From: an uncultured Solirubrobacterales bacterium
GTDB lineage: Bacteria > Actinomycetota > Thermoleophilia > Solirubrobacterales > Solirubrobacteraceae
DNA: 64,000 nt
Direction of reading: 5' to 3'
Assembly: GCA_963718625.1 (NCBI GenBank)
Contig: OY970362.1
Coordinates: forward strand, 975,845-1,039,844
Numbering within the stretch: position 1 is the stretch's first letter; each line of letters opens with the position of its first letter. Below, one piece after another: positions 5,148 through 53,837 of the stretch. Position numbers and translations under genes: made by a program. Below the pieces are notes generated by a model. The model had not been told where the DNA came from and searched no databases. It saw only the letters and a program-made list of their open reading frames with translations.

Positions 5148-5191
5148 AGCGTTGATTGTACGGGCGCGTGCCTGCCCTTATCCTTCGACGC

Positions 5192-31901: not shown

Positions 31902-31907
31902 TCGACA

Positions 31908-37729: not shown

Positions 37730-39226
37730 ATGGCCGACCCGCTTACCGCACTGGACGCGACGTTCCTCGAGCTCGAGCAGATGGACGAGGGCGCGACGAT
37801 GCACATCGGGGGTGTGATGGTCTTCGATCCACCGCCAGACGGAACCGTCCCCGCGCTCGAGGCGGTGTGCGCGAACATCGCGTCGCGCCTGACCCTGCTG
37901 CAGCGCTACTCCCAGCGGCTCTCCTCGGAGCGGACAGGAGGGCTGACGTGGCCACGCTGGCATGAGGATCCCCAGTTCGACATCAGCAACCACGTGCGCC
38001 ATGCCGCACTGCCAGCACCAGGCAGCGAGGTCGAGCTGTGCGAATGGGCGGCGGACTTCTTCTCACACCGACTCGATCGCACGCGCCCGCTGTGGGAGAT
38101 GGTGCTGGTCGAGGGGCTCGAGCACGGTCGCTGGGCGCTGGTCATCAAGATGCACCACTGTCTCGTGGACGGGATCGGGTTGGTCGGCGTGGTGCACCTG
38201 CTGCTCGACGCCGAGCCGCCTGCCTGCCCCACCGCTGCCCAGCCGACGGCGGACGGGCCGGGCTCGCCGTGGCGAACGCTCGTCCCGCACCCGCCGGACG
38301 CGGTCGCGGACCTGGCGAGAACGGGTGCGCGCGCGGCGGCCGCCGGCGTACATGCGGCGCTGCATCCTCGCGAGGCACTCGAGAAGTCCCGCTCCTTGGC
38401 CGAGCTGATCGTGCGCGACGAGCTGATCGCCGCCCCCTGCACCAGCCTCAATGCGCCGATCGGGGCGACGCGCCGGTTTGAGATCGTGCGCGCCTCGCTG
38501 CTCGACCTGAAGGCAATCCGGCGCGAGTTCGGAGGCTCAGTCAACGATGTCGTGTTGGCGGCCTGCACCGCCGGTCTGCGCCGCCTGCTGCTTTCGCGTC
38601 GTGAGCCGCCCCCGACGGAGGGTCTGCGCGCGATGGTCCCGATGAACGTCCGCAACGACTCGGAGCAGCTTGCGCTCGGCAACCGTGTCAGCTCGCTGTT
38701 CGTGGAGCTCCCGGTCGCCGAGTCCGACGCATTCGCGCGCTTTCGCAAGGTCGTCGAGCACACGAGCAGGCTGAAGTCATCGGGGGCGGCGCTCGGTGCC
38801 GCAACGATGATCGATCTTGCCGCGCTCGCCCCGCCGCTACTGCACGCGCCGATCGCGCGCTCCCTGTACGCGACGCGCCTGTTCAATGTGACGATCACCA
38901 ACGTACCGGGGCCTCCGTTGCCGCTGTACGCGTTAGGTGCGCCGCTGCGCGAGGTTTACCCGATCGTCCCGCTCGCGGCAAAGCACACCGTTGGCATCGC
39001 GATCGTCTCCTACAACGGGGGCATCGTGCTCGGCCTCAGCGCCGACTGCGACTCCACGCCCGACCTCCACGTCCTCGCCGAGGGAGTAGAGGAAGGCTTC
39101 ACCGAGCTCCGCACGCTGCTCCCGCCCGAAGCGCCGAGGCCGTCTGCGAGGCCCAAGTCCCTAAAGCCCAAGGGCCCGCTCACGGTGGTCGCGACCCCCA
39201 AGCTGATCGCCGGCGCTAGGTCCTGA
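37730..39226 (+). CDS. wax ester synthase / diacylglycerol acyltransferase (WS/DGAT) family
   Basis: MADPLTALDATFLELE N-terminus. Catalytic HHCLVDGIG (HHxxxDG) motif. About 498 aa. Confidence 0.9.
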   Translation: MADPLTALDATFLELEQMDEGATMHIGGVMVFDPPPDGTVPALEAVCANIASRLTLLQRYSQRLSSERTGGLTWPRWHEDPQFDISNHVRHAALPAPGSEVELCEWAADFFSHRLDRTRPLWEMVLVEGLEHGRWALVIKMHHCLVDGIGLVGVVHLLLDAEPPACPTAAQPTADGPGSPWRTLVPHPPDAVADLARTGARAAAAGVHAALHPREALEKSRSLAELIVRDELIAAPCTSLNAPIGATRRFEIVRASLLDLKAIRREFGGSVNDVVLAACTAGLRRLLLSRREPPPTEGLRAMVPMNVRNDSEQLALGNRVSSLFVELPVAESDAFARFRKVVEHTSRLKSSGAALGAATMIDLAALAPPLLHAPIARSLYATRLFNVTITNVPGPPLPLYALGAPLREVYPIVPLAAKHTVGIAIVSYNGGIVLGLSADCDSTPDLHVLAEGVEEGFTELRTLLPPEAPRPSARPKSLKPKGPLTVVATPKLIAGARS

Positions 39227-39658
39227 CCCTGCGGGTGCTCGTTATGCGCCGTTCACCGATAATGGCCACGCGGGGATGCCATGCGGCGCTCGGCGCAGGT
39301 GCCCCGGCGCGAGCACGAGCGGTCAACATCAGACCGCGGCCGAGCACGTGGCGGACGTCGTGTGGCATGAGGATGTCGAGGCGAGGCGTGACAAGCCCGA
39401 GATCAGCGAGGGCAAGTGGTTCCTATCCCGTGTTGGCGCCGAGACTGACGAGGAGCTGACCCCGAGGCCATACGGCAAGGAGGAATGCCGACGCAGCGAT
39501 CGAGCAGGCCGAACGTCTGCTCAGTGCCTCGTGACCAAACGCGCCTTCTACTGGATGGTGGGTAACGCTTCGGGTAACGATGGACTCGACGCAGCCGCTC
39601 AAACCCGATTTAGCTGCACGGGGCAGCCCGCAGTTACCGGCGCTGCACACATCGGGCA

Positions 39659-39713
39659 GGCCTTAGGAGCCGGTGGGCCCTGGGCCCTTGGGGTTCGAGT
39701 CCCTCCGCCCGCA
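39659..39713 (+). repeat. second partial copy of the tRNA-Leu(TAG) 3' half (att-like distal boundary)
   Basis: GGCCTTAGGAGCCGGTGGGCCCTGGGCCCTTGGGGTTCGAGTCCCTCCGCCCGCA. There is no 5' half upstream. The acceptor and T-loop are identical to the intact gene. Confidence 0.8.
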
Positions 39714-39967
39714 TTACAGTCGTGGCAACAAATATTCGTTTGGAAATCGACTCCCAGGCTTAGCGGTCCGGCTAGGATGTTCGCGCGAATATGGTGGATC
39801 GACACGGTCGCTCCTCCGCGGAAATCAGGCGTGTCGGCTGTCGTGATGCTTAGCTAGCGAGCGTCTGATTTAGGGCCCAACACAGCTGGGCCGTCCGTCC
39901 TGAGCGGCGACGGGTGCCCGACTCCGCCAGCCCTGGACTCCTCGCATGCCGCGAGTGCGAGCTGTCG

Positions 39968-40309
39968 CTAGCCGCCCGCCTCGGCTTCCGCGATCCGGCC
40001 CGCCTCGCCGCGCTTTTCGACCACGACATAACCGGGGTAGACCTCGACAGTCGACTCGACGGCCGCTTCCTCATGCCCTGGGAGTAGGACGAACCGGCGC
40101 GGATGGGATCGCACGCGGGCGTACTCCCCAATCGAGAGGTCCAGCACCCCACCGCAATCCACGCGGACGCACTCGCATATGAAGGTGTCGGCCGACTGTC
40201 CGTTGCGCGGACGCTGATACTCGATTCTGTCGTTTATGCGCCGCGCCAGGGCCTCGTTCTGCGCCATACGGCGCTTGCGTCGATCATCCACTCCCGGGAA
40301 CCATTCCAC
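39968..40309 (-). CDS. hypothetical protein (start may be the ATG at 40267)
   Basis: The ORF has normal composition (MAQNEALARRINDRIEYQ...FICECVRVDCGG...). The longest form overlaps the TetR gene end by 26 nt. Confidence 0.5.
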   Translation of the reverse strand: MEWFPGVDDRRKRRMAQNEALARRINDRIEYQRPRNGQSADTFICECVRVDCGGVLDLSIGEYARVRSHPRRFVLLPGHEEAAVESTVEVYPGYVVVEKRGEAGRIAEAEAGG

Positions 40310-40913
40310 TCAGGCGGGGAAAGCGCTCTCGGTACTGATCGATGAGCTGGCGTGCCATCGACTTGCCTCGCCGCGCTGCTTGCGCATCGCCCTCGGCTGC
40401 TACGACGATCGAGCCCTGAATGAGGATGTGCCACGAGCGCGCGAACGACTCGGTGTCGCGCAGGCCGGCTTCCTCGGCTAAGCGGCGTACGATCGCGCGG
40501 AGCTGCTCGAGATGCCAAACGCTGGCGCCGCCCGCAGGATGCCCAGGGCCGAGTTCGAGCAGTACCTTGATAAACGAGCCCGCCTCGAAGTCCTCGCGAT
40601 GAAACCACTCGTCGAGTACATCGAAGATGGCGAGTAGTCGCTCCTCGGGGTTCGAGCCGCGACGCATGGCCCCGGCTTCAATGAGGTCTTTGGTCCAGCG
40701 CTGTTCGCGGAGGTCGAGGAACGCGAGTACGAGCTCGTCCTTTGAGCGGAAGTGCCGGTAGAGCGTCGCGGTCGCGACGCCCGCGCGCTCAGTGACCTCG
40801 TTGACCCCCACTGCTTGGATGCCGCGTCGCGAGAACAGCTCGTACGCGGCATCCAGAATCCGCTCGCGGGCGCTGACCCCCGTCTCGGCCGGCTGGTGGT
40901 GGGTTTCAAGCAT
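40284..40913 (-). CDS. TetR/AcrR-family transcriptional regulator
   Basis: N-terminal HTH ILDAAYELFSRRGIQAVGVNEVTERAGVATATLYRHFRSKDEL. Confidence 0.9.
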   Translation of the reverse strand: MLETHHQPAETGVSARERILDAAYELFSRRGIQAVGVNEVTERAGVATATLYRHFRSKDELVLAFLDLREQRWTKDLIEAGAMRRGSNPEERLLAIFDVLDEWFHREDFEAGSFIKVLLELGPGHPAGGASVWHLEQLRAIVRRLAEEAGLRDTESFARSWHILIQGSIVVAAEGDAQAARRGKSMARQLIDQYRERFPRLSGMVPGSG

Positions 40914-40931
40914 GCCTTAGCAGGGTATCAC

Positions 40932-40974
40932 TAGAAAGAACGTTCTCTCTATGATAGAAAGAGCGTTCTCTCTA
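40932..40974. promoter_or_regulatory. two tandem 20-bp imperfect palindromes (TAGAAAGAACGTTCTCTCTA at 40932-40951; TAGAAAGAGCGTTCTCTCTA at 40955-40974); likely TetR operators
   Basis: AT-rich, centred on GAACGTTC. They sit 19-61 nt upstream of the tetR start and 50-92 nt upstream of the divergent small ORF at 41024. Confidence 0.6.
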
Positions 40975-41023
40975 GTCGCTTGAAGGGCTTTTTGAGGAGC
41001 ATTCGACGGAAAGGAGGGGTCCC

Positions 41024-41179
41024 ATGGGGCTCTTGGAGTTGCTTTTGATTGTCCTAGTAATCGCAGCTGTCGCGGGCGGGATCGGTCTAAGCCCGTTGCT
41101 TTGGCTGTTGCTGGTGGTAGCCCTCGTGGTCTTCCTCACGGGCGGCGGATTCGGTTATCGCAGAGGCGGGAGGATCTAG
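41024..41179 (+). CDS. small (51-aa) two-TM membrane protein
   Basis: AAGGAGGGG RBS 5 nt before the ATG. MGLLELLLIVLVIAAVAGGIGLSPLLWLLLVVALVVFLTGGGFGYRRGGRI. Below the ORF-track size cutoff. Confidence 0.55.
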   Translation: MGLLELLLIVLVIAAVAGGIGLSPLLWLLLVVALVVFLTGGGFGYRRGGRI

Positions 41180-41181
41180 GT

Positions 41182-41388
41182 ATGCCTATCGGCACATCGA
41201 TCTTCCTCATCGCCGTCGGCGCGATCATCCGCTACGGCCTGACGTTTCACGTGTCGGGTGTATCGCGCCCAACGATCGGCCTGATCCTCATCATCGCCGG
41301 CATCGTCGGTGTGGTGCTGTCGCTGTTCTATATGGCCACTGCTCGACGGCGAGTAGTCGGCGGACCTTACGAAGAACGGCGCCTCTAG
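41182..41388 (+). CDS. small (68-aa) two-TM membrane protein (DUF6458-like)
   Basis: The ATG lies 2 nt after the previous stop. MPIGTSIFLIAVGAIIRYGLTFHVSG...IGLILIIAGIVGVVLSLFYM. Confidence 0.6.
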   Translation: MPIGTSIFLIAVGAIIRYGLTFHVSGVSRPTIGLILIIAGIVGVVLSLFYMATARRRVVGGPYEERRL

Positions 41389-41613
41389 TGTCCGAGTGAC
41401 CCTGCGAGCAAGCGCCGCAAGGGATCGAGCCCGTCAGCCGCCTACGCCGCCCGCCCTGCTGGACGGGCGGCGGGCTCGGCTTGAGACGCCGGGACGCGGC
41501 GGCTTTTAGCTCCAGCGGCACGAGGACCCACCGCGCGCCTTCTCGGCTAGACGTCTTCCGTCGGCCACACGGGCGCCCGAAACCCAAACAAAGCTAGCTA
41601 CAGGAGGAAAACC

Positions 41614-42024
41614 GTGAGCACCGGAACGATCATCGGAATTGCTGTCGGCGCCGTGGTGGTGCTACTGCTCATTGCCCTCGTCGCTCGCGCCGCGAGTCGC
41701 AGGCGTGACGAACGTCGTCGTGAGCAGGCGGGCGAGCTTCGCCAGGAGGCCAGAAGCCGTTCGATCCAAGCCGAAACTGCGCGTGCCTCGGCTGATGAGC
41801 AGGCCGCCCAAGCCAAGCGTGCGCAGGCTGAAGCTGAGGAACGCGCCGCCCAGGCGCGGCAGGGACATGCCGCCGCGGAGCGACAGGCGCTCGAGGCTGA
41901 GCATTTGACCCAGTCTGCCCGCGATCAGCACGCGCAGGCACGAGCGATCGACCCAGATGCGAGCGACACCGGACAAGACGAGGCACTGGCGATCAATGAG
42001 CGGTCCGGCCGCGAGGGTCGCTGA
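41614..42024 (+). CDS. membrane-anchored coiled-coil protein (hypothetical)
   Basis: AGGAGGAAAACC then GTG. An N-terminal TM (IIGIAVGAVVVLLLIALVA) is followed by an R/E/A/Q-rich helix. Confidence 0.6.
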   Translation: MSTGTIIGIAVGAVVVLLLIALVARAASRRRDERRREQAGELRQEARSRSIQAETARASADEQAAQAKRAQAEAEERAAQARQGHAAAERQALEAEHLTQSARDQHAQARAIDPDASDTGQDEALAINERSGREGR

Positions 42025-42211
42025 GCTCATGAGCCGCGCCAGAGCCGGCGACCTACCACAGCCTGAGCGTGCGCCCAGCGCACCCCGTCGCACACTGTCC
42101 AAAGAAGGCTGGAGACCGGCCCTCGCGTCTGACCTCCCCGACCTCCAGGTAGTTCGACTTCCGGTCGTCGCGATGGCCGGCGCATGCGGTCGCGTCTCAA
42201 GGGACGTACCG

Positions 42212-42730
42212 ATGCTCGGTATGCCGGACTCGCAGCGGGCGCAGGGCGACACGCGCCGCGAGACGCCGCTCGAGCGCCTCGACCGCAACCTCGAGGAGCT
42301 CACCGGCGAGCTGCGCGTCGTTGTGACCGGGGTGCAGGTTCTCTTTGCGTTCCTACTGATCGTGCCATTCAACACCGGCTTCGCCCACGTCGGGGACTTC
42401 GAGCGCACGGTGTACTTCGTCACGCTCATGCTGACCGCACTGGCGGCCGTCTGCACGATCGCGCCCTCGGCCGAGCACCGCGTCCTATTCCGCCACGACG
42501 ACAAGCACCACATCGTGCTCAGGTCGAACCGCGTCGTGATCGCGGGCCTCGCGTTTCTCGCGATGGCGATGTGCGGCTGTCTACTGCTCGTCACGACAAC
42601 GCTGTTCGGCGTGACGGCAGGTGTGATCACTGCGAGCGTCGGCGCGATCCTGTTCGCGGGGCTGTGGTTCATCATGCCGATCGCTCGCCTGCGCAAGCTC
42701 GAAACCGAACAACGCGACCCTCACCGCTGA
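42212..42730 (+). CDS. DUF6328-like membrane protein
   Basis: ETPLERLDRNLEELTGELRVVVTGVQVLFAFLLIVPFNTGF...SAEHRVLFRHDDK.... Start taken at an internal ATG of ORF 41957-42730. Confidence 0.6.
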   Translation: MLGMPDSQRAQGDTRRETPLERLDRNLEELTGELRVVVTGVQVLFAFLLIVPFNTGFAHVGDFERTVYFVTLMLTALAAVCTIAPSAEHRVLFRHDDKHHIVLRSNRVVIAGLAFLAMAMCGCLLLVTTTLFGVTAGVITASVGAILFAGLWFIMPIARLRKLETEQRDPHR

Positions 42731-43086
42731 GCGCGGCTAAACCGGCGGCGCAGCGGCCCGCAGCTGCTCGCCTAGCGTGACGGGAGGAATCGCCGTCTCG
42801 GTGATCCGCTCGATCACCTCAGGGTCCTCGATCCGCGCCCGTTCGGGTCTCGAACCCCCGGCAGCGTCCGCGCTGCGAGATTCCCGCCGCGCCGCCGTTA
42901 CTTCGCCACCGCCGCGCTATCGCTGGCCCCGCAGGCGCCTCGCCGTCGATCTCCAATCATCCTGCCGATATCCGTGTCGCCGGGCCTCGAAGCAGATTTC
43001 CAGTTGTCGCAGGCGGGTATCGGTCGGGCATACCTGAGACGGCAGGAGCCAGTGATGGCCAAAATCACGGCCGAGCTCGGCTCGCG

Positions 43087-44892
43087 TCAAGCTCCGCTCA
43101 CAGCCGCTGCGGGGCGACTCGATGAAGCAGGTTCTGATGCCGAGGCCATGCTCGCGGGAGGGGCCGGGCCGAGGCTGCCGAGCAGCGCCAGCAGCGCGAG
43201 CCCGGCGAACCACGGGATGTACAGGTAGAACCAGTGTTCGAGCCCGAGCTGCGCGGCGATGATCACCGCCGCACACGCTGCCGCGAGCGCGACGAGGTCC
43301 CGCTGGCAGGGGATCAGCGCGAGAACGAGCGCCAGCACGACGGCTGCGATCCTGACCACCAGCAGCAGCCCGCCGAGGCCGCCGTACAGGCCCCACACCG
43401 AGAAGGGCGAGCCGCGGCCCGACTGAAAGGCGACCGTGCGCTCATAGATCGTGTGCAGCGAGTCGTGGGTCAAGGCAGGGATGCAGGCCACCGCACCGGC
43501 GAGCGCGAACCCGGCGAGGAACAGGGCCAGCTGGCGGATGCGCAAACGCCGCCACGGCGCGATGGCATGCTCGCGCCCGGTGCCGCGGGAGCCTTCGCCG
43601 TCGGCGTCGCGCCATGCCCCGTGGGTGGCCAGCAGCGGGACGAGCGCCAGCGGCACGAACTTCGTCAGGCCCGCGAGCGCGGCGAAGGCGCCGCGCGCCG
43701 GCGCCGAGCGCGACGCCGCTACCGCCGCGAGCACGAGCACCGCGACGAGCGTGTCGTCGGTGTTGTTATCGAGCGCGTATAGCGTGAACGGGTAGGCGAC
43801 CCACGCGTACGCGAGGGCGACCCCCAGCGTGGGCCCGCGCACGCGGCGACCGAGCAGGAACAGCAGCGCGACCGCAAGCAGGTCGAATACGACCGCGGCG
43901 GCATGGGCGGCGGGCAGGCTGTCCCAGGTGCCGCTCCAGCCGAACACTTGCACGAAGGGCACGTACGCCTCGTACTTGACCGGACCGTAGGTGTCGTAGT
44001 GGTCGTTGTCCGGCTGATAGGAGCCGTACAGCGGCTGTCCCTGCACGATCCGCTGCGCGCCGATCACACCGGCGTAGCCGACGTCGAGCACTTGGGGGTC
44101 GACGACGTTCAAGAAGATGCGAAAGCCGAGCAGGAGCACGACCCCGACCGCCAGCCACGATGACGGCACGTTCAGCCGCAGGGGCCGCGTCGAGCGCCGA
44201 GCTCCCGCGCGGCTCAGCGCGAGCATCCGCGCGAGCAGGTAGAGCAGCGGCGGATACGCGAGCGGGACCGAGGCGTATATGTGCGCGTTGTTGAAGAACG
44301 CGAGCGAGATCGAGAACGACAGCAGCACCAGCAGGTCGAGGTTGAGCAGCGAGAGGGGCCGGCGGAAATCGATGAACGGGAATATGAACAGCACGCACAG
44401 GGGCAGCCATATATACAGCGCGTTCACATGCCGCCCGGTCGCCCAGTAGTGGTCGCCGCGCGCCATCACCCACGTCACCTGAAAGCCCGTCCACTGTTCC
44501 AGCACGCGCCACGTTTCATCATCGACGATGACCTGGGCGATTTCCTTTCCCGCGGGCGAGAAGTAGCTCACCTTCCACTGGGATGTCGGCTGGAAAATCG
44601 CGACTCCGTAGGAGCCCTCGTATTTCGCCCGTACAGCCCTCACCTTGGGCAGCGCGCCAGCGATCGCCAGCATCTGGCTTTCCGACGACTTCGCGCCCGC
44701 CGGCGGGGCGTTGGACGCCGGCGACGACGGCGGGGCGCTGGACGCCGGGACCGTGACTGAGCCGCCGCCGGTGGTGGGCTGGCCCGAGGAGGCGGGCACC
44801 GCGGCGCTGGCCGGCCTCCTCGGCTCGGCACTCGCGGCTGCCGGCAGCGCGCACACCGCGACACAGACGATTACGACACGACAGCAGTGCAT
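43087..44892 (-). CDS. polytopic membrane protein with secreted N-terminal Pro/Ser-rich linker and PepSY-like segment; GT-C/DUF2029-like glycosyltransferase candidate
   Basis: 601 aa. Signal-like start, at least 10 hydrophobic segments and loop motifs (...DVGYAGVIGAQR..., ...YGPVKYEAY...). The family call is by resemblance only. Confidence 0.45.
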   Translation of the reverse strand: MHCCRVVIVCVAVCALPAAASAEPRRPASAAVPASSGQPTTGGGSVTVPASSAPPSSPASNAPPAGAKSSESQMLAIAGALPKVRAVRAKYEGSYGVAIFQPTSQWKVSYFSPAGKEIAQVIVDDETWRVLEQWTGFQVTWVMARGDHYWATGRHVNALYIWLPLCVLFIFPFIDFRRPLSLLNLDLLVLLSFSISLAFFNNAHIYASVPLAYPPLLYLLARMLALSRAGARRSTRPLRLNVPSSWLAVGVVLLLGFRIFLNVVDPQVLDVGYAGVIGAQRIVQGQPLYGSYQPDNDHYDTYGPVKYEAYVPFVQVFGWSGTWDSLPAAHAAAVVFDLLAVALLFLLGRRVRGPTLGVALAYAWVAYPFTLYALDNNTDDTLVAVLVLAAVAASRSAPARGAFAALAGLTKFVPLALVPLLATHGAWRDADGEGSRGTGREHAIAPWRRLRIRQLALFLAGFALAGAVACIPALTHDSLHTIYERTVAFQSGRGSPFSVWGLYGGLGGLLLVVRIAAVVLALVLALIPCQRDLVALAAACAAVIIAAQLGLEHWFYLYIPWFAGLALLALLGSLGPAPPASMASASEPASSSRPAAAVSGA

Positions 44893-44933
44893 CGGGCCCA
44901 GGCTACATCAGGCCCAGAGTGAAGCGACCGCCC

Positions 44934-46619
44934 CTAGCTGGGCGCCGTCTCGCGCTCCAGTTCCCAGCCGCCGCTGGAGTTGGGCGAGAGGAAGTTCGGC
45001 GGCTGCTTGGTCACGAGCCGTTCGTCGTAGTTGTAGTTCTTTTCGGGGTAGCCGGCCTTGCCTTCGCCTTGGGTGACGCGGCCGCGCCAAAACTGCGCGA
45101 TCGCCCCCCAGACAGTCAATTTGTGCAAGTCCGCGCCACAAAAGAAGTTATCGACGATGAACGAATTCTTGGTGCTCAAGATCGCCGCGTCGATGATCAG
45201 GTTTTCATTCGCGCCTCCCAATTCTTTCGGGATGCCTTCTTCGCTTGATACCTGGTTAGTCCCGTTACATTCGCCTTCGATTCCTTTGGTTCGTTCGTTC
45301 TTTGGATTGAAGGCCGCAGGCTTGACAGGGTGATAAACGCGCACGAAGTCCTGCGCGACGAGTCCAAGCGTGGCTGAACCGGTCGGTTCTCCTCCCGCTG
45401 CCCCACCGGTGGTGTAGGTGTTGCCGTTAACGATCACATCTTGCTGGGAAGCAATCGTCAGCGATTCCGTGTACGATCCCTTGACGTAGACGTCGCCGCA
45501 GTTGGTGTCTTTTTCGTAGTCTTCGTCGTAGCTGAACGGAGAGTAGGTCACGCCGCAAGCGGGCGAGGATTTGTTCGAGACGTAGACCACGCCGTTGCTC
45601 GGAAACGGGATCGTCTCTTTGCCACCAGCCACTTCGGCATTCCACACCGTCATTTCGTTGCCTTTGAGTTCGATGCGGGTGCGCCCGATGAACTTGTCTT
45701 GCGCCGTTTCGAGAAGTTCTGTGTCAGTCGGCGGTGGGCTGAGGGTCGGCCCGCCTTCCTTTTTTTTGCCATAGAATTTAGCGGAGCCGCCACAACCGAA
45801 TATTTCACCGTCCGCGGCTGCTCCTTCGTTCATTTCGAGGACGTCTTCCGGAGAATGGCCTTTGCGTCCGAATGCGGATTCGCTGCCGAAGACCGAGCAG
45901 AGCGAGACCCTGTCGTTGCTGTGAAATGGCCCGTTCAGTTCGTCCCCTCCGATGAACGGAATCGGCGGGCATTCACCGAGGTAGCCTTTTTCGTTGCGCG
46001 CTTTATAATAGTGTTCACAGTGTTCAGTGAGTTCAGCCGTCGGTTTCGCGGCTGTCTGCGGATCTTCCACTTCGTAATCGCTGAGGAACACGTAGTTGAG
46101 GAAGCCAGGGTGTTTGAACGTCGCGATGATGGACTTTTGGACGCCGTTCGCGTAGCCGGTGGCCTTGATGCGAAATGTGTCGTTTGCCGACCCGGTGGTC
46201 TCGACGATCGAGGCCTGCTTGTTTTCTTCGCATGTGGCGTGACCCGTCGTCGGAAGCGTTTCGAATTTGTAGGACTCGCCGTTGTAGGTCTGCGATGATT
46301 CTTCGAGCAGCTTGACCGGGGTAGATGGGCTTTTTTCTTTTTTTTCGTTTTCGCCTTCGGAGTGCGGGCACGTTTTCCAGTATTCGAGTGAGGAGTTGAG
46401 GTTGTACTCGTACACCTGAAGGCCGGCCTGCGCCGCGTAGTAGGCATCGTCCGCGCCGGTGTTCGATCTCGTGAGGTGGACATCGCCGCTCGCGTTGGCG
46501 AGGGCGCCAGCGACCAGCAGCGAGCTGACGAACAGGATGGCGAGCGTCATCAGGAGCGTGAAGCCGCCCTCGTCGCGGACCGTCGAACTGAAGTGATGGG
46601 TGGGCGTTTTTATGTGCAT
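44934..46619 (-). CDS. large PilX/GspK-like pseudopilin (561 aa), no Glu5; Cys-rich, Lys-rich, beta-rich body
   Basis: N-terminus ...RDEGGFTLLMTLAILFVSSLLVAGALA. 10 Cys. The start overlaps the stop of the upstream prepilin gene by 10 nt. Low GC. Confidence 0.75.
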   Translation of the reverse strand: MHIKTPTHHFSSTVRDEGGFTLLMTLAILFVSSLLVAGALANASGDVHLTRSNTGADDAYYAAQAGLQVYEYNLNSSLEYWKTCPHSEGENEKKEKSPSTPVKLLEESSQTYNGESYKFETLPTTGHATCEENKQASIVETTGSANDTFRIKATGYANGVQKSIIATFKHPGFLNYVFLSDYEVEDPQTAAKPTAELTEHCEHYYKARNEKGYLGECPPIPFIGGDELNGPFHSNDRVSLCSVFGSESAFGRKGHSPEDVLEMNEGAAADGEIFGCGGSAKFYGKKKEGGPTLSPPPTDTELLETAQDKFIGRTRIELKGNEMTVWNAEVAGGKETIPFPSNGVVYVSNKSSPACGVTYSPFSYDEDYEKDTNCGDVYVKGSYTESLTIASQQDVIVNGNTYTTGGAAGGEPTGSATLGLVAQDFVRVYHPVKPAAFNPKNERTKGIEGECNGTNQVSSEEGIPKELGGANENLIIDAAILSTKNSFIVDNFFCGADLHKLTVWGAIAQFWRGRVTQGEGKAGYPEKNYNYDERLVTKQPPNFLSPNSSGGWELERETAPS

Positions 46620-47449
46620 GGCTCGTTGATGTCTTCCGATCCGGATTCGGTGGCGTTGAAGCGCAAGACGACGTCGGCCTGGAGCGGAACGGTGTGGCCC
46701 TTGGAGACGACGGCCGTCGGGCGGCCATTGTTGGCATCCGTTGGCGGCGCCTGAGTGAACTGGATCGCGACCTTGGCGATACCGTTGTCCTTTTCGCCGG
46801 CGGCGGTCTGGATTTCAGATTCGCTTGACAGGGGTGTGAATTTCTTGCTGCCTTCGCTGGCGAGCCGGGAGTAGGTGAAGAGCGCGCCGGTTTCCGGATA
46901 CAAGACGTTTTCGGCAAGCAGCGTCTTGGTCGCGTTTTTGGTTTCAAGTGCGGGGAACGGCCAGACACCCTGGAGGGGTTCGCCCGTGCTGGTGAAGCGG
47001 TAGTCGACGAGCGTGCCGAGTTTCTGCCCGGATACTTCGCTGGTTTTTTCCCAGGTGATGTCGTGCTCGTACAGTTTTTTGTAGAACGCCCCTTCGGCGC
47101 CGGTTCCGTTGCCATACGCGCTCAGGAACCAAAGGTTGGTGGCGTTCAGTTTCGACAGGGGAGAGGAGACGGTCCCGGAGGGAACCTGGATCGCGGTTGC
47201 TTCGAAGCCGGTGCAGCTGGAATGCAGCTCTTCGACGATCTGGTTCATGGCAGTTCGGCCGATCTGATCCGCAGTTGTGACGTCGCTGAGCCGCGTCGAC
47301 TGGTCGAGTGCCACCTGCATGATCGTCGCCAGGGCTGCGACGACGATCGCGGCGCACGCCATACCGATCAGGAGTTCGATCATCGTGAAGCCGTGCTCGC
47401 CGAGGCGCAGCCGGCTCGCTGATCCGTGCGCGAGCATCAGCAGCGTCAC
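46610..47449 (-). CDS. prepilin-type N-terminal cleavage/methylation domain protein (PilW-like minor pilin)
   Basis: ...LGEHG/FTMIELLIGMACAAIVVAALATI (G/F-x-x-I-E signature). GTG at 47449, or ATG at 47437. Confidence 0.8.
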   Translation of the reverse strand: MTLLMLAHGSASRLRLGEHGFTMIELLIGMACAAIVVAALATIMQVALDQSTRLSDVTTADQIGRTAMNQIVEELHSSCTGFEATAIQVPSGTVSSPLSKLNATNLWFLSAYGNGTGAEGAFYKKLYEHDITWEKTSEVSGQKLGTLVDYRFTSTGEPLQGVWPFPALETKNATKTLLAENVLYPETGALFTYSRLASEGSKKFTPLSSESEIQTAAGEKDNGIAKVAIQFTQAPPTDANNGRPTAVVSKGHTVPLQADVVLRFNATESGSEDINEPCT

Positions 47450-48926
47450 CAGCGCTTCGGTTTTTGTTCTGTTCTTCCATATAGATCTTCGTGACGGCGG
47501 ACCCGGCGCTGGACGTGTTCGGGATCACGATCGGTTTGGTGGTTTTCCAGAATTTTTTGGCGCCGACTTTGACCGCCACGCAGAGTTCGAGTTCTTTCGC
47601 GTATGGCTGACCCTTGTGGAGCAGTTCGCCTTTAGCGTTCAGCCCCCCGGGCGTCGTGAGCGAGTGTTCGTATTTGACGCCGCTCGTGTAGTTCTGGGCG
47701 GCGACCCCTTTGCATTCTTTGTTGATGAACTTGAGCGATTCGGCGGTAGTCATGACCGGAGGGACTTTTTTGGCGAGTTCTTCTTCTCCGACCTTTTTTT
47801 TCGTCTGCTGATAGACGATGATGTTTACCGCCGGCAGTTCGACGGTCGCTTCAGTCGTTTTTTCCGGCAGGACAGCCGCTTCGGCGGGTTTGACTTTGGC
47901 GACCGTTTCGGGGCTGTTGGCAGGACAGTCCCCCGCGTACACGGTGTACTTTTCCGGTTCCCAGACTTTTTCTTTCTGTGTAGTAAAGGGATAGAGTTTT
48001 TCGGTAAGTGAAACTGTAGTGAATAGCGGTGGTCCCGGGGTACCGCCGACGTAGAAAGGATCCGGTTTGATCTTGGACTGGTAGGCGACGAACGTATCGC
48101 CTTCGGTGACTTCGGCGCCCGTTTTGAATTTGACTTCGAGCGCTTTCCCGCTGGGCGCGATCACGAATTCGGCCAGCGCGACGGTCCCCGACGTCACGGA
48201 GATTTCTTTGGACGGCGTTGTTTCGCCGGCTTCGTTGATCCAGCCGGTCTTTTTGACCAGGACGGTGTATTTCTTCCCGGCGGTGAGCGCGGCGAACACG
48301 GCGCAGCCGCTCGCGGGCGTGAGCTGCGTGGTGCCGGGGCCTTTGCCTTCTTCTTGCACTTCGGCGGTCGCGCCTTCGACGGGGTTGTTGTCCTCGTCTT
48401 TGATCTTGACCTCGATCGATGCCGTCGGCGGGACCGTGACGATGCTCGTTTGACGGACCGGGTGGTTGTCGTGCGTTTTCTCGCCGGTCCAGGTGGCTTC
48501 GCTCGTGGTCTGGATGTAGTTCGCGCCGGCGCCCGACGTTTCGCACGTGAACTGTTTGCTGGCGGCCGAGACGTACGTGGCGGTGTTCTTGACCGTGATT
48601 TCGATGCAGTTTTTGCTGGTGCCCGCGGCGCAAACTTTCTTGGTGGGTTCGGTTTTTGTCCCGTACTGCTCGAGTTCGGTCGTCGGCAGGGCGCGCAGCT
48701 TTTCCTGTTCTTCACCGACCAGCTGGGTGGCCAGCGCGCGCGTGCGGTCGGTGGCCGTGGATTTCGTCGCGGCCTGAAAGCCGGTGAACGTCCCGATGGC
48801 GATCAGCGCGACGAGCACCGCGCTGATCAAGACTTCGATCAGCAGGAAGCCGGCCTGCGAGGTGTGCGGCGACGACGGCGCTGGGCCGCGATAGGAGGGT
48901 CTGCCATAGAAAGTGTGCATCGTCAC
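47446..48926 (-). CDS. large prepilin-type protein (PilV-like N-terminus, about 490 aa). In the sequence as given the stop is missing at the A5 tract, so the ORF runs on to 46944
   Basis: ...HTSQAG/FLLIEVLISAVLVALIAIG. Body includes a CarboxypepD_reg-like segment (IEVKIKDEDNNPVEGATAEV...YTVLVKKTGW). The coherent protein ends ...TKIYMEEQNK. A TGA at 47446-47448 is reachable only by a 1-nt frame change. Confidence 0.7.
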
Positions 48927-49067
48927 AAGCGGCTCCGGAGCTACTGGTGTAATCGGCAGTTCGGACCCTGCGCTTTAGCGCGTGGGGTCGGCGAACTTGG
49001 CTTGCCGGGCGGGCCGTGGCGGCGAGCTGTGACGCGGCCATCCAGCGCCTAGAATCCCGGGCTGCTC

Positions 49068-49138
49068 GGGGGACTGGTGTATCGGTAACACGGCGGTCTC
49101 CAAAACCGCAACGCCAGGTTCGATTCCTGGGTCCCCCG
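49068..49138 (+). tRNA. tRNA-Trp (anticodon CCA)
   Basis: GGGGGAC/GTCCCCC acceptor. Anticodon stem GCGGT/ACCGC with loop CTCCAAA. T-arm CCAGG-TTCGATT-CCTGG. A TAGAAT -10-like box sits 13 nt upstream. Confidence 0.9.
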
Positions 49139-49256
49139 TTTGGCTCTACAAAGCCAAATCCCAGTCCCAGTGCGCGATTACAGCATCATCAGCCCCACGC
49201 TCTCATCCGCTCAAGACCGCTCAAAACCGCCCGAGAAGTCGAGAACGCTTCAGCGC

Positions 49257-49853
49257 TCAGCTCCCCTTGGGGCCGCCGCAGGCCTGCGCGGCGGTCTGGA
49301 AGGCGGGTGACTGCGTGTTGACGCCGGCCATATAAGCCTGTTGCCCGCCGCCGGGGCCGGCGATGACCTTGGGTTCGGGAAAGTTCGGCATGCCGTGGCT
49401 GCGCATGCACTTGACAAACTTCCGCTCGGTTTCTTCCTGTTCGACCTTCTGTTGCGGGGAGACGTTCACCCTCTGCGGGGGAGGCCGGTAGCGGGCGCAG
49501 GCCCTCTGTGCCGTTTCCGCAGCCGCAAAGCCCCCCTTGCCGGGCCTCATCTCGATGCCTTGGCCCCCGCCGGGGTGGCTCACAGCTTCGGCGTTGACGC
49601 CGTGTTCGCGCAGGCACCGCGCGAAGTCCGCGAACCTGGTTTCGGCCTTCTGTTCCCGGGCTTGTTCTTTCGCGGCGGCGTTCGCGTTCGACTCCGAGCC
49701 GGAGTCGCCGCAGGCCGCGAGCAGCGCGACCGTCGCGACGACGACGGGCACCGCCAACGGGCGCGGCAGACGCACTCTCGTCGACGCGGGGATCGGACGG
49801 AGCTGGGAAATGGGGCTCCCTTCGCGGGCTTGCGAGTGATGGGGGAGGCTCAA
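49257..49853 (-). CDS. hypothetical lipoprotein with two F-x-x-C-x-R-x-HG repeats
   Basis: Lipobox ...VALLAAC/GDSG. FARCLREHGVNA and FVKCMRSHGMPNFPEP repeats. The start codon is uncertain. Confidence 0.65.
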   Translation of the reverse strand: MSLPHHSQAREGSPISQLRPIPASTRVRLPRPLAVPVVVATVALLAACGDSGSESNANAAAKEQAREQKAETRFADFARCLREHGVNAEAVSHPGGGQGIEMRPGKGGFAAAETAQRACARYRPPPQRVNVSPQQKVEQEETERKFVKCMRSHGMPNFPEPKVIAGPGGGQQAYMAGVNTQSPAFQTAAQACGGPKGS

Positions 49854-49937: not shown

Positions 49938-50642
49938 TTAGGCCTTGGCGCCGGCCCGCTGTTCCACGCCGCGCTCGGAGGCGATCAGGATCGTGCTCAC
50001 GATCTCCGGCGCAAACAGCCCGTGCTCGATCACCCCGGGGGTCGCGCTCAGCCTCGCACACAGCTCGCGGGGGACGTCGATCTCGTCGAGGTAGTCGGCG
50101 ATCAGGCCGCCGTCCGGGCTGGGCTCGACGTTGCGCAGGCGCGCGTTGCCGAGCGCCGCGAGCGTCTCGCGGACGCCGAAGGCGACCAGCTCCAGCGGCA
50201 CCGGCGGGGTCAGCCGCGCCACCGCCTTGTCGGCCGAGGCGATCACAACGAAGCGCCTCGCGGCCCAGGCGACGATCTTCTCTCGCGTGTGGGCGCCGCC
50301 GCCGCCCTTGATCAGCCATCCGTCGGGGTCGATCTGATCGGCGCCGTCGATCGCGAGATCGAGCTCGCCGACCTCGTCGGGATCATCCACCCGCAGACCG
50401 AGCGCCCGCGCGGCCTGGGCCGTGACGGGCGACGTCGCGACGCAGCGGAGGTCGCTCAGCCCGCGTTCGGCCAGCGCCGGCAGCAGCTCGGCCACGGTCG
50501 TGCCCGTGCCCAGCCCCAGACGCATCCCGTCCTGCACCATCTCGGCAGCTACCGTGGCGGCTGCCTGCTTTTGACGCCTGGCGACCGCGGGGTCGCTCAA
50601 TGGCGGGAGCCGTTGCCCACCAGCCGCACGACCGGACGCCAT
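49938..50642 (-). CDS. rpiA: ribose-5-phosphate isomerase A
   Basis: GLGTGTTV and IDGADQIDPDGWLIKGGGGAHTREK motifs. An alternative TTG start at 50600 overlaps the upstream stop (TTGA). Confidence 0.9.
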   Translation of the reverse strand: MASGRAAGGQRLPPLSDPAVARRQKQAAATVAAEMVQDGMRLGLGTGTTVAELLPALAERGLSDLRCVATSPVTAQAARALGLRVDDPDEVGELDLAIDGADQIDPDGWLIKGGGGAHTREKIVAWAARRFVVIASADKAVARLTPPVPLELVAFGVRETLAALGNARLRNVEPSPDGGLIADYLDEIDVPRELCARLSATPGVIEHGLFAPEIVSTILIASERGVEQRAGAKA

Positions 50643-52486
50643 GGCGCGGACGTTACCGCCACGGGCGCCTCGTTGAGCTGAAGGCGCTCGGGCGCCTCTG
50701 GCTTTTGCAGCAGAAAGCCCTGCCCCACCGAGCAGTCGAGCTCCAGCGCGAGCGCCAGCTGCTGGCGGTTTTCGATCCCGACGGCAACGGCCGTCAGGCC
50801 CGCCTCGTGGGCCAGCGCGATCATCCCCGCGACCATCGCCCGCCTGTCGCGGTCGCTCTCAAAGCCCTGAATCAGCGTGCGATCGAGCTTGAGCACGTCC
50901 AGCGGCAGGTTCTTGGGCAGGTTGAAGGGGGAGCGGCCGGCGCCGAAGTTGTCAAGCGCGATCACCACATCGAGGCGCTTGAGTTCCTTCAGCGCGACCT
51001 CGATGCGCTCAGGGTCGCGCAGGACCGACTGCTCGCTCACCTCAAGGCAGAGCGCGCGGCCCGGCAGCCGGAAGGCTGTGAGCTGCTCGCGCAGGCGGTC
51101 GGCGAAGCCGAGCTCTGTCAGCTCGCGCGAGGACACGTTGATCGAGATCGGGATCGCGATGCCCTGGCGCTGCCACTCGGCCGCCTGTTCGCAGACGGCG
51201 CGCAGCACCCAGTCGCCGATCTCCACGATCAGCTCGCTCTCCTCGGCGCGCGGGAGGAACACCGACGGCAGCAGCCGGCTGAGCTTCGCGCGGTCGGTGC
51301 CGTCGGGCTCCCAGCGCACGAGCGCCTCGCAGCCCACGGGGCGACCGCCCGCGAGCGGCAGGATCGGCTGGTAGGCGAGTCGCAGCTCATCCTGGGGCAG
51401 CGCGTCGCGCAGTCGGTTCTCGATCGCCGCGTGCGCCTTGAGCTCGCGGCGCAGGCCGTCGTCGAACAGCTCCTTGCGCCGCCCCCCGGCGGCCTTGGCC
51501 TGGTACATCGCGGTGTCCGCCTCGCGCAGCATGTTCTCGGGGTCGGCCTGCGGATCGTGCGAGACCGACACGCCGACGCTCGCGACGACCGTGACCTCGG
51601 TCTTGGCGACCGGGAAAGGCTGCTCGAGCGCAGCGATCACGCGCTCTGCCAGGGCGAGCGCTTCGGCCTCGTCCTCGACGTCCTCCGCCAGGATCACGAA
51701 CTCGTCGCCGCCCAGGCGCGCGACCGTGTCGCTGTCGCGCATCATCTCGTCCAGCCGCTCGGACACTCCGATCAGCAGGCAGTCGCCGACCTCGTGGCCG
51801 AGGTTGTCGTTGATCGCCTTGAAGCGGTCGAGATCGATGAACAGCAGCGCGACCACGCCCTGGCTGCGATGCATGCGCGCGAGCGCCTGGCGGGTGCGAT
51901 CCATCAGCAGCAGCCGGTTGGGCAGGCGCGTCAGCGGGTCGTGCAGCGCCTGGCGCTCCAGCCACATCCGGTCGGTGACGTCCTTGGCAGACGCGTACCA
52001 CAGCTCGCCGTCACAGCGCGCGCTCCACAGCAGCCAGCGCCAGGACCCGTCGCGGTGGCGGAAGCGGTTGGTGAAGCTCTCGAGCTGAGTCGGGTCGTCG
52101 TTGCCGGCGAGCATCGGCGCGAGCGTCCGCGACACGTCGTTGGGATGCATCAGCTCGGCAATCGGCTGTGAGAGCAGCTCCTCGTGCGTCCAGCCGAGCA
52201 CCTGCTCCCAGGCCGGGTTGAGCAGCGTGAAATGGCCGTCGGCAGAGATCGTCGCGAGCAGGTCGCTCGTCATCTCGAACAGCCGCGCGATCTGCGCGGC
52301 GCCGGCGGCGCTCGAGCCGGCGTCGGGCGTCGGGCGCTCGGCCGTCGCGAGACCCGTGTCGCTGGCGGAGTCGCCGGCCGCGCGCGTCGCGCTCGCGTCG
52401 GGTTGCATGCTTGTCGTATGGGAGGGCATCTGCCTGCCAACCACGTCGGCTGAACCCGTGCGCCGCTCGGGCGCCCGCGCTGCCAA
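50597..52486 (-). CDS. PAS-GGDEF-EAL signalling protein (diguanylate cyclase/phosphodiesterase)
   Basis: A PAS-like segment, RLGGDEFVIL (GGDEF) and CEALVRWEP (EAL). 629 aa. Confidence 0.9.
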   Translation of the reverse strand: MAARAPERRTGSADVVGRQMPSHTTSMQPDASATRAAGDSASDTGLATAERPTPDAGSSAAGAAQIARLFEMTSDLLATISADGHFTLLNPAWEQVLGWTHEELLSQPIAELMHPNDVSRTLAPMLAGNDDPTQLESFTNRFRHRDGSWRWLLWSARCDGELWYASAKDVTDRMWLERQALHDPLTRLPNRLLLMDRTRQALARMHRSQGVVALLFIDLDRFKAINDNLGHEVGDCLLIGVSERLDEMMRDSDTVARLGGDEFVILAEDVEDEAEALALAERVIAALEQPFPVAKTEVTVVASVGVSVSHDPQADPENMLREADTAMYQAKAAGGRRKELFDDGLRRELKAHAAIENRLRDALPQDELRLAYQPILPLAGGRPVGCEALVRWEPDGTDRAKLSRLLPSVFLPRAEESELIVEIGDWVLRAVCEQAAEWQRQGIAIPISINVSSRELTELGFADRLREQLTAFRLPGRALCLEVSEQSVLRDPERIEVALKELKRLDVVIALDNFGAGRSPFNLPKNLPLDVLKLDRTLIQGFESDRDRRAMVAGMIALAHEAGLTAVAVGIENRQQLALALELDCSVGQGFLLQKPEAPERLQLNEAPVAVTSAPWRPVVRLVGNGSRH

Positions 52487-52513: not shown

Positions 52514-52999
52514 CTAGGGAGCCGGGCTCAACGAGGCCGTCTGCTCGGAGACGCCGGCCGGCGTGGCGGTCGCGGGCGCAGCGGAGGCCGCGTCCCCGCG
52601 CAGGAAACGCCAGATCGCCAGGCACATCAGGATGGTCATGATGATCGCGCTCGACACGCACCACTCACAGATCGCGTGGATCGAGAACAGCTCGCGGTAG
52701 GTCAGGTACGCGCTGAAGCCGAAGCCGCCGAGCGTGATCACGACGGTCGCGAAGCGCATCGTCTCGCCCTGCGGCAGGAGAAGCGTCGCGAGGATCAGGA
52801 CGTATCCGATCAGGCCCATCAGCGCGACCGGGATCCCGACAAGCTCGGAGTAGCTGGAGGTTTGCACCTTCGTGCAGCTTTCCCCAGCCGTGCAGGCGGG
52901 CTTGATGCCCGCGTAGTGGACGTAGGTCAGATAGGTGGCGACGCCAAGTCCGATCAGCGTCAGCACGAGCATGATGGTCCTCAGGACGCGACTGGACAT
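52514..52999 (-). CDS. vitamin K epoxide reductase (VKOR) family protein
   Basis: Four TM segments, a loop Cys pair (CTAGESC) and a CEWC redox motif. Confidence 0.85.
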   Translation of the reverse strand: MSSRVLRTIMLVLTLIGLGVATYLTYVHYAGIKPACTAGESCTKVQTSSYSELVGIPVALMGLIGYVLILATLLLPQGETMRFATVVITLGGFGFSAYLTYRELFSIHAICEWCVSSAIIMTILMCLAIWRFLRGDAASAAPATATPAGVSEQTASLSPAP

Positions 53000-53006: not shown

Positions 53007-53837
53007 CTAGCTTTTCAGGGCTTTTTCGATCGCGGCGTCGAAGCCGGACGGGTCGGTCAGCGAGGAGTATTCGAGCTTTTCGGACGCGTGTCCGGATTTG
53101 CCGATCAAAAACGAGGGCGTGCCCGTGAAGCCCTCGTTGGTCGCCGTCTGTCCGTCGGTCGCGACCTGTTCGGCCAGCGCCGGTTCGTTGCGTTCGCTCG
53201 TCCACTGCGAGAGCTTCAGGCCCTGGATCTGTTCGGCCAGTCCCTGGAGGAATTTTTCGGTGACGTAGCCGCTGTTCTCTTCTCCCTGGTCGTGGTAGAA
53301 GAGCTCGATGTAGTTCCACATCTTGGCCTGCTTGCCCGCGGCCAGGGCTGCCACCTGCTGAGTCTTGAACAGTTCCGGTTCGTGCGTCGCGGTCTCCATC
53401 GAGTTGTATTCGATCTTCAGCTTGCCCTGACGCACGTAGCTTCCGATCAGCGATGGCAGCGCCCCGAGTGTGAACTCCCTGCAGATCGGGCACTCGAGGT
53501 CGCCGAAGTAGCGCAGTGTGACCGGCGCGTTCGGGTTGCCGAGCACGTTGCCCTGCTGCGGGATCCCGGCGAGCAGCGTGTTGACTTGGGTGACGGACGT
53601 GTTGGCTTGGGGGGTTCCGGCTTTGACCGCCGTTTTGGAGCTCGACCCGGTGGCGATCAGGATCACGACGATCGCCGCGATCACCCCAGCGACAACGATG
53701 CCGATCAGCGACAGGCGTTTGCGCCGCGCATCGCGCGCCGCCTCGGCCTGCTCCAGCTCCTTGCGTTCGGCGCGCGCCTGCTCGCGGCGCTGCTTGCGCG
53801 TGAGGTCCTGACCGCCGCCCTCGATCGAAGCATCCAT
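53007..53837 (-). CDS. membrane-anchored DsbA-like thioredoxin-fold oxidoreductase
   Basis: GDLECPICREFT (CPxC). One TM (LIGIVVAGVIAAIVVILIA). The ORF extends to 53933; the ATG at 53837 was chosen. Confidence 0.8.
   Translation of the reverse strand: MDASIEGGGQDLTRKQRREQARAERKELEQAEAARDARRKRLSLIGIVVAGVIAAIVVILIATGSSSKTAVKAGTPQANTSVTQVNTLLAGIPQQGNVLGNPNAPVTLRYFGDLECPICREFTLGALPSLIGSYVRQGKLKIEYNSMETATHEPELFKTQQVAALAAGKQAKMWNYIELFYHDQGEENSGYVTEKFLQGLAEQIQGLKLSQWTSERNEPALAEQVATDGQTATNEGFTGTPSFLIGKSGHASEKLEYSSLTDPSGFDAAIEKALKS

Follow-up and report, generated by a model that had tools for sequence, protein, structure and literature searches.

The question posed by one locus of an uncultured Solirubrobacterales bacterium is whether a low-GC, lysine-rich block of unusually large prepilin-type genes beside a tRNA gene is a recently acquired island or a resident part of a pilus system, and what the products of these genes might do. 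The locus belongs to a stretch of 64,000 nucleotides (nt) from contig OY970362.1 of the assembly GCA_963718625.1 (positions 975,845 to 1,039,844), called the window hereafter. Three consecutive genes of its minus strand, g1, g2 and g3 in the 5' to 3' order (together the trio), are followed there by g4, the gene of a membrane protein of 601 amino acids (aa). The original prediction, made from the window itself, had taken the four for an orphan operon, possibly acquired horizontally, in which a pilin-type adhesin or DNA-uptake module is accompanied by a pilin glycosyltransferase. As analysed here, g1-g2-g3 probably encode the core minor-pilin complex (tip or priming) of a type IVa-like pilus in a monoderm Solirubrobacterales bacterium; this reading is preferred because of the prepilin signatures, the ComZ-like fold predicted for g3, the immunoglobulin (Ig)-like stalk predicted for g1, and the linkage of the trio to pil genes in distant relatives.

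The analysis covered 81 loci fetched from relatives for comparison and numbered L001, L002 and so on. About 70 of them are termed split-type, with the trio away from the pil cluster, as in the window, and 11 are termed cluster-type, with the trio beside the pilus-machine genes. The features of the window that bear on the question are as follows.

47450-48926, minus strand: g1, predicted PilV/GspI-like modular prepilin of ~490 aa, with the start of the open reading frame (ORF) at 48926
46610-47449, minus strand: g2, predicted prepilin in the PilW/GspJ position, 279 aa from GTG or 275 aa from the ATG at 47437
44934-46619, minus strand: g3, predicted ComZ/PilX/GspK-like tip prepilin, 561 aa
43087-44892, minus strand: g4, GT87-like polytopic membrane protein, 601 aa, co-directional with the trio
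47435-47472, minus strand: frame defect at the g1/g2 junction
49067-49139, plus strand: tRNA-Trp(cca) (ARAGORN), conserved upstream boundary of the slot that holds the trio
31817-31903, plus strand: tRNA-Leu(tag) (ARAGORN), probable ancestral downstream neighbour of g3, here 13 kb off
31904-44933: variable insertion between tRNA-Leu(tag) and g3, outside the pilin module

The three prepilin-type ORFs with starts at 48926, 47449 and 46619 were found as claimed, and their class-III signals were borne out, with a glutamate at position +5 of the mature protein in g1 and g2 and none in g3. The tight coupling of the genes also holds: g2 and g3 overlap by 10 nt (46610-46619), a GTGA junction lies at 47449-47446, and the gap between g3 and the 601-aa ORF of g4 is 41 nt. 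The adjacency of tRNA-Trp was confirmed with ARAGORN.

The gene g3, which comes third in every locus, has the N-terminus ...DEGG/FTLLMTLAILFVSSLLVAG, that is, GG/FTLLM, with the cleavage site G19/F20 and a methionine in place of the glutamate at +5; as in GspK and PilX, Glu+5 is present in 0 of 74 g3 orthologues. Its 10 cysteines are all invariant or nearly so. In the AlphaFold2 (AF2) model built with 35 homologues (pLDDT 75, pTM 0.71), the DSSP assignment gives a helix at 17-76, the strands of the pilin sheet at 116-169, short strands at 227-530 and a final strand at 553-558. When this model was compared with the PDB by Foldseek, only three matches had E<=1e-3, all of them ComZ chains of the entry 6QVI (E 5.7e-8 to 5.7e-6, probability 1.0), and the next-best match had an E of 1.3. 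In ComZ, a pilin of the GspK type, the final strand is preceded by an inserted beta-solenoid; the protein binds the GspI-like PilA2 and DNA, has been argued to be located at the tip, and has been proposed to form a tip complex with PilA2 (PMC6561018). The order of helix and strands in the g3 model agrees with such a topology. The suggested resemblance of the 561-aa protein to ComZ is thus supported by its only significant fold match in the PDB, although the likeness in the model would be one of fold class, not of close homology. The PilX_N family was matched by 13 of 35 g3 homologues at E<=0.01 (best E 2.8e-6). Longer homologues of g3 (650-950 aa; P0095, P0120, P0075) carry a tandem Lys-rich repeat of ~40-50 aa in 1-6 copies, ...GTTISEIKASEKKLKLSKAAKP..., inserted in the beta-rich body after residue ~433 of the window protein (alignment A1), which itself has no such repeat.

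For g2, the N-terminus ...GEHG/FTMIELLIGMA places the cleavage site at G20/F21 and the glutamate at +5 at residue 25. The N_methyl family PF07963 matches g2 at 26.8 bits, above the cut-off of 21.2, and 21 of 22 orthologues; Gly-1, a hydrophobic residue at +1 and Glu+5 are kept in ~73 of 74 orthologues, and G20, E25, C79 and the C-terminal C278 are invariant. The best NCBIfam match is the Hps pseudopilin HpsC, at the N-terminus only. Thus, when the pilin-family searches by hidden Markov model and by structure, proposed earlier as a check, were run, g2 exceeded the N_methyl cut-off and the g3 model matched ComZ.

The N-terminus of g1 is ...SQAG/FLLIEVLISAVLVAL (QAG/FLLIE), with the leader M1-G26, the mature protein beginning at F27 and Glu at +5; Gly-1, the hydrophobic +1 residue and Glu+5 are kept in all 76 of 76 orthologues. 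The N_methyl match of g1 is below the cut-off (E 0.22), and that to PilV TIGR02523 reaches 25.2 bits against the cut-off of 52.2 (E 1.8e-5, aa 24-144), so that g1 appears PilV-like in its position and N-terminal domain and is not filed as a member of PilV/GspI. Further along the chain, a sub-threshold match to CarboxypepD_reg covers aa 170-233 (E 1e-5), and the family profile finds the SdrD B-domain (E 7e-4). The AF2 model (40 homologues, pLDDT 84) consists of a helix at 27-78, a small pilin sheet and then three Ig-like beta-sandwich domains, for which Foldseek returned the multi-Ig adhesins and pilins of Gram-positive bacteria TIE, PitA, SpaC and BcpA with E down to 7.5e-12. On the strength of the model, these adhesin matches and the SdrD B-domain match, g1 may be regarded as a modular pilin in which a PilV-like pilin module bears an Ig-like stalk.

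The linkage to a pilus machine comes from the relatives. The 11 cluster-type loci are the most divergent ones (g3 identity 34-37%), and most of them have the trio embedded in a complete gene cluster of the type IVa kind. The genes of L073 are arranged as PilB (T2SSE+MshEN), PilT and PilC (T2SSF), intervening genes, a major pilin, g1-g2-g3, PilD (A24), PilM, additional genes and one that is PilO-like; PilD directly follows g3 on its 3' side in L073, L047, L067 and others. The major pilin of L073 is canonical (GFTLVELLVVMLILG...) and has a weak match to ComP_DUS (E 4e-5), below the cut-off. In the same locus, the stretch that separates pilC from the major pilin gene (4401-7013) encodes a protein of the beta-lactamase family and an HtrA-like trypsin-PDZ protease and also contains a small ORF. 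Together with the N_methyl and PilX_N matches across the families, the position of the trio inside the pilus clusters of distant relatives agrees with the PilV/PilW/PilX-type minor-pilin set that had been predicted.

If g1-g2-g3 form such a core complex, the three proteins would be made as prepilins, cleaved by the prepilin peptidase after the conserved glycine and held in the membrane by the hydrophobic N-terminal helix. The g3 protein, with its bulky ComZ-like body and without Glu5, would enter first and cap the fibre; g2 in the PilW/GspJ position and the PilV/GspI-like g1 would dock under it via their Glu5-bearing helices, and the docked proteins would prime the polymerisation of a major pilin encoded elsewhere. 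The body of g3 and the three-Ig stalk of g1 would then be shown at the tip as a binding module for adhesion to surfaces or polymers or for DNA capture. In this scheme we infer the assembly order, the tip location, the ligand and the retention of a machine in this genome.

Several results weigh against the assignment. When the PilB, PilT, PilC, major pilin, PilD, PilM and PilO of a relative were used as tblastn queries at E<=1e-4, no machine gene turned up in the 64-kb window or in the 10 kb flanking the trio on each side in the ~70 split-type loci. The sequence and structure searches with g2 matched pilin N-terminal helices only, and its profile likewise found only pilin N-termini in the PDB, so that the rest of the protein has no assignable fold. 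The similarity of g3 and ComZ amounts to TM-scores of 0.24-0.32 with 10-11% identity; the g3 family profile found ComZ alone among PDB sequences, weakly (E 0.24) and in the N-terminal helix, and the window g3 itself falls below the cut-off for PilX_N (E 0.057). Finally, the reading frame of g1, as the window gives it, is broken. A motif scan of the window revealed neither a further pilin N-terminus nor the Walker A motif of T2SSE. The claimed lack of a major pilin, ATPase, platform and peptidase in the 64 kb was borne out, and, among the 120 matches listed for the PilB of L073, all are at least 71% identical proteins of its clade-mates and none is on a split-type contig. The earlier idea of a module using a machine encoded elsewhere is therefore upheld at least in that the window holds no machine and that the trio lies in full pil clusters of distant relatives.

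The base composition of the block had been described correctly: the GC content is 0.57-0.59 at 45-48 kb against ~0.70 in the flanks, and all nine A/T homopolymers of >=6 nt in the 64 kb, the three T runs cited earlier included, lie within 44934-48926. In the trio, the GC content is 0.55-0.58 at the first codon position (GC1) and 0.72-0.79 at the third (GC3), against a GC3 of 0.83-0.92 in the neighbours; its proteins contain 4-10% Lys and 1.2-2.9% Arg, against ~2% and 8-11% in the neighbouring ones. The statement that the trio is Lys-rich unlike every other protein of the window holds for g1 and g3, with K/(K+R) of 0.89 and 0.71 against a median of 0.19 for the other ORFs, and fails for g2 (0.60), which is matched by three other ORFs at 0.55-0.61. 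The composition of g4 is normal for the genome (GC3 0.88). Among the relatives, the mean GC of the trio is 0.62 against 0.69 in the flanks (76 loci); the split-type trios lie 6-10 points under their flanks, with 5-7.5% Lys in the orthologues, whereas the cluster-type trios of L073, L074, L076, L079 and L081 contain ~1% Lys and have a GC close to that of the flanks. The lowered GC of the trio is partly due to its amino-acid usage and would reflect a lineage-wide makeup of these exported proteins, rich in Lys, Thr, Glu and Asn and poor in Arg. From the composition of the cluster-type trios, the Lys-rich state is probably a derived one that accompanies the relocation to the tRNA slot; the exception is the intermediate L082, with a Lys-rich trio (4.4%) that nevertheless adjoins machine genes.

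The lysine enrichment bears on the nature of the ligand. In a functional variant of the minor-pilin reading, which we rate as possible but clearly the less likely course, the trio would be the DNA receptor of a competence pilus, like ComZ/PilA2 of Thermus, and its Lys-rich surfaces would bind extracellular DNA for transformation. The only structural relative of g3, ComZ, binds DNA via lysines (PMC6561018), the trio is strongly enriched in an amino acid otherwise rare in the genome, and the ComP_DUS match of the L073 major pilin points in the same direction. However, an identity of 10% is too low to align the lysines with which ComZ binds DNA, and the ~1% Lys of the cluster-type orthologues implies that Lys-richness is not intrinsic to the family; the Ig-like stalk of g1 resembles adhesins, and solenoid-bearing PilX proteins of cyanobacteria serve motility or adhesion as well (bioRxiv 10.64898/2026.02.12.705559). 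Moreover, comEA, comEC and dprA were not noticed beside the trio in any locus, no systematic search for them having been made. The minor-pilin complex could plausibly bind DNA, as ComZ does, and equally surfaces or polymers. A related conjecture, which we consider improbable, is that the trio of Solirubrobacteraceae, freed from the pil cluster, moved to a slot flanked by tRNA genes and altered from ~1% to 6-10% Lys and to an Arg-poor makeup, might have taken on a new function, such as that of a DNA-capturing tip, or might now serve a filament machine other than the ancestral type IVa one; should a DNA-capturing tip prove true, abundant uncultured soil Actinomycetota would be naturally transformable.

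The frame problem noted earlier between g1 and g2 concerns the integrity of the module. The defect is real in the sequence: g1 as given has no stop until 46944 (660 aa) and after ...IYMEEQNK continues out of frame across g2. The single-base repair does not stand, since the relatives indicate two extra bases. In L003 and L004 the g1 product ends with ...EEQKKEKETAVTC and in L005 with ...EEQTKTTALVSC, each followed by a stop that overlaps the start of g2 as TGATG, and, aligned with the DNA of L005 and L003, the window contains one surplus A within the run 47461-47465 and one surplus C near 47443. Removal of both restores the end ...EALVTC, with the TGA at 47439-47437 overlapping the ATG at 47437-47435. 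The count of cysteines given earlier was right for g3 with its 10 and wrong for g1, which as given has 7, not 8; the restored C-terminal cysteine is the eighth, a residue shared by at least 90% of the family. Other solutions were tried and rejected: a single-base repair yields the non-homologous end ...PKRW, the removal of the A alone would join g1 to g2 in frame, and programmed frameshifting at the A-run is contradicted by the ordinary stop with the TGATG overlap in the relatives and would require the second indel as well.

A module decaying in this genome, with g1 as a true frameshift pseudogene, is a rather unlikely account of this defect. It would agree with the missing in-frame stop and the loss of the conserved C-terminal cysteine, as well as with the absence of an identical g1 product from the protein collection, in which none of four g1/g2 variants was found by exact-product look-up, and it requires two separate 1-nt insertions. 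On the other hand, the ratio of nonsynonymous to synonymous divergence (dN/dS) of g1 relative to its two closest relatives is 0.24-0.26, like that of the neighbours; g2 and g3 are intact, and L001, which comes from an independent sample, contains g2-g3-g4 in identical form; this contig, the only independent one, ends short of the g1/g2 junction. The related records are long-read metagenome-assembled genomes (MAGs), with contig_N and MFD names, and single-base indels are common in long-read MAGs, which counts against a pseudogene.

That the three proteins are pseudopilins, belonging to a system of the type II secretion or Com (ComG) kind instead of a retractile type IVa pilus, is very unlikely. 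The weak NCBIfam matches of g2 to the N-termini of GspI, HpsC, HpsB and ComGF, the names such as 'pseudopilin PulG' given by the Joint Genome Institute, and the I/J/K-like logic of two Glu5 subunits and one without would fit such a system, but the matches are limited to the shared N-terminal helix and far under the cut-offs, and the cluster-type relatives have PilT, PilM and PilO with PilB, PilC and PilD, which is the type IVa set and differs from those of ComG and type II secretion systems. Monoderm Actinomycetota also have no outer membrane to secrete across.

As to the origin of the block, the g3 homologues number at least 855 in the protein collection clustered at 90%; the relatives of g3 occur in at least 255 species-level genomes, essentially all of them Solirubrobacterales MAGs, and g3 matches 3,364 clusters of 50% identity at E<=1e-3, 783 of them with an E of 1e-30 or better. 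The term 'orphan' is thereby refuted for the trio, found in at least 255 species genomes and ~3,400 clusters of 50% identity. One record, L033 (CAVRRP010000025.1), holds a Solirubrobacteraceae-type trio with 46% g3 identity under the label 'Candidatus Eremiobacteraeota', probably through an error of binning or labelling. All fetched loci with flanks have the genes in the order g1-g2-g3. Among the 63 split-type loci whose flanks are long enough, tRNA-Trp precedes g1 by <1.2 kb in 54; tRNA-Leu(tag) is downstream of the trio in 52 split-type loci, <=204 nt past the g3 stop in 32 of them, and RpiA with a PAS-GGDEF-EAL gene precedes the trio in ~40 relatives. In sum, the trio occupies the slot between tRNA-Trp and tRNA-Leu(tag) in most of the ~70 relatives, down to 35% g3 identity, and the window has the same tRNA frame save that its tRNA-Leu(tag) is 13 kb from g3. 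Compared with L005, the synonymous divergence (dS) of the trio is 0.62-0.78, with 0.71 for rpiA and 0.54 for the GGDEF-EAL gene, and the dN/dS of the trio, 0.12-0.30, is as in these housekeeping flanks; no integrase or repeats bound the trio.

Because the synteny of the slot is conserved, the dS equals that of the flanks and the composition is common to the orthologues, the trio is an old, vertically inherited feature throughout Solirubrobacterales, and its dN/dS indicates purifying selection. Its horizontal acquisition is not upheld for the same reasons, and the synteny comparison proposed earlier found that the block from tRNA-Trp through g3 is not lineage-specific, since most relatives have it in the same location. 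A recent genomic island by tRNA-Trp, with a pilin tip or adhesin module and a pilin glycosyltransferase, is thus refuted for the trio and hardly credible any longer: the GC 10-13 points under the flanks with a somewhat lowered GC3, the adjoining tRNA and the missing nearby pilus machine speak for it, while the slot shared by most of 70 relatives, the flank-like dS, the composition common to orthologues, and borders free of integrase or repeats speak against it, the mobile part being the 13-kb stretch beyond g3, away from tRNA-Trp, g4 included.

This 13-kb insertion carries, by Pfam, a NosD-like beta-helix gene, radical SAM, YceI, WS/DGAT, TetR, DUF6458 and DUF6328 genes and the GT87-like gene, together with partial 3' copies of tRNA-Leu(tag) at 33928-33980 and 39659-39714; no recognisable integrase was found in it. 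When the window was compared with L003 (85% g3 identity), the sequences aligned from tRNA-Trp through g4 at 88.7% and the alignment then jumped to 33609-31890 at 97%; therefore, positions 33610-43074 are extra in the window. Between g3 and the end of tRNA-Leu, L005 holds a different 5.3 kb, L002 an integrase and a relaxase, and L003 an IS110 element. The 3' end of tRNA-Leu(tag) is accordingly an integration hot spot with cargo differing by lineage. The NosD-like gene (32164-33438) is 97% identical to its counterpart in L003 (10327-12037), against ~89% for the adjacent core genes, and the dS of g4 is 0.11 against 0.22-0.43 for the trio, which suggests that the cargo was recently exchanged between lineages.

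In g4, ~10-11 hydrophobic segments and a match to Pfam GT87 above the cut-off (30.4 bits against 25, aa 327-429) bear out the GT-C-like polytopic membrane protein; no NCBIfam match and no sequence relative in the PDB were found. The homologues of g4 are confined to L001, L003 and L004 (>=84% g3 identity), none being present in L005 (70%) or the other loci. Because of this confinement to the closest relatives, the location inside the variable insertion and a dS lower than that of the trio, g4 is best taken as mobile cargo of the hot spot and not as a conserved partner of the pilins. Its proposed role as a TfpW/PilO-like pilin glycosyltransferase is not sustained, as the linkage is not conserved, and nothing was found that links g4 to pilin glycosylation. 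Given the 41-nt gap, g4 may be co-transcribed with the trio here.

No promoter-like site was found in a scan of 42800-49400, and the terminator-like sites found there are on the non-coding strand only and at chance frequency. Upstream of tRNA-Trp and the trio, RpiA is encoded at 49938-50642 and PAS-GGDEF-EAL at 50597-52486; the 198-aa ORF between tRNA-Trp and rpiA (49257-49853) has a lipoprotein-like signal (...LLAACGDSG...), 5 cysteines and no Pfam match. Further upstream are VKOR (52514-52999) and a DsbA-like thioredoxin (53007-53933), a pair confirmed in the window and in L002 only. A disulfide-forming pair and a cyclic di-GMP enzyme thus adjoin Cys-rich exported pilins, which is an observation of synteny only.

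A literature search on type IV pili in Solirubrobacterales or Thermoleophilia returned nothing relevant. The preferred reading, that of a minor-pilin complex, would place a tip complex of the ComZ or solenoid-PilX type in Actinomycetota, namely in the uncultured, soil-abundant Solirubrobacterales, as the third terrabacterial phylum with such a tip after Deinococcota and Cyanobacteria, which suggests an old architecture. It also draws attention to three large families with thousands of members, whose bodies have no Pfam or NCBIfam match above the cut-off, and g3 alone or with g1 offers a concrete target for distinguishing adhesion from DNA binding. The locus is cautionary as well, since an island-like, low-GC, tRNA-flanked block is core and the truly mobile DNA beside it has a normal GC.

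Of the known systems, Thermus thermophilus ComZ with PilA2/PilA3 (6QVI; PMC6561018) resembles the trio in a large (~550 aa) protein that lacks Glu5 and combines a GspK-like pilin domain with a bulky beta-rich body; this protein is encoded directly after smaller Glu5-bearing GspI/GspJ-like pilins and is a proposed pilus cap. It differs in belonging to Deinococcota, whereas the host of g3 is a monoderm actinomycetotal bacterium, and in the low identity and TM-scores given above; moreover, the PilV-like partner here is large (~490 aa, with three predicted Ig-like domains), the trio in the lineage of the window is detached from the major pilin and the machine, and DNA binding would apply here only by analogy. 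The PilX subfamilies of cyanobacteria, HpsA included, carry a solenoid between the penultimate and last strands, have PilV/PilW partners, form core minor-pilin complexes and have been proposed to replace PilY1 as a tip plug or adhesin (bioRxiv 10.64898/2026.02.12.705559); by this description they follow the same core-set logic as the trio in a different phylum and cell envelope. GspI-GspJ-GspK of the type II secretion system and PilV-PilW-PilX of the proteobacterial type IVa pilus share with the trio the gene order, two Glu5 subunits with a larger terminal one without it, the tight translational coupling and the matches to the PilX_N and PilV models (those of the window g1 and g3 being below the curated cut-offs), but the subunits of the trio are 2-4 times larger, and a FimU/GspH-like fourth subunit or PilY1 was not seen. 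The closest counterpart of g1 in design is found in PilB and PilC of Streptococcus sanguinis (PMC8179133, PMC9934059), in which a pilin module likewise bears extra domains displayed on the pilus; these are vWA or lectin modules, as opposed to the Ig/CnaB-like ones predicted in g1, and the proteins have no sequence relationship.

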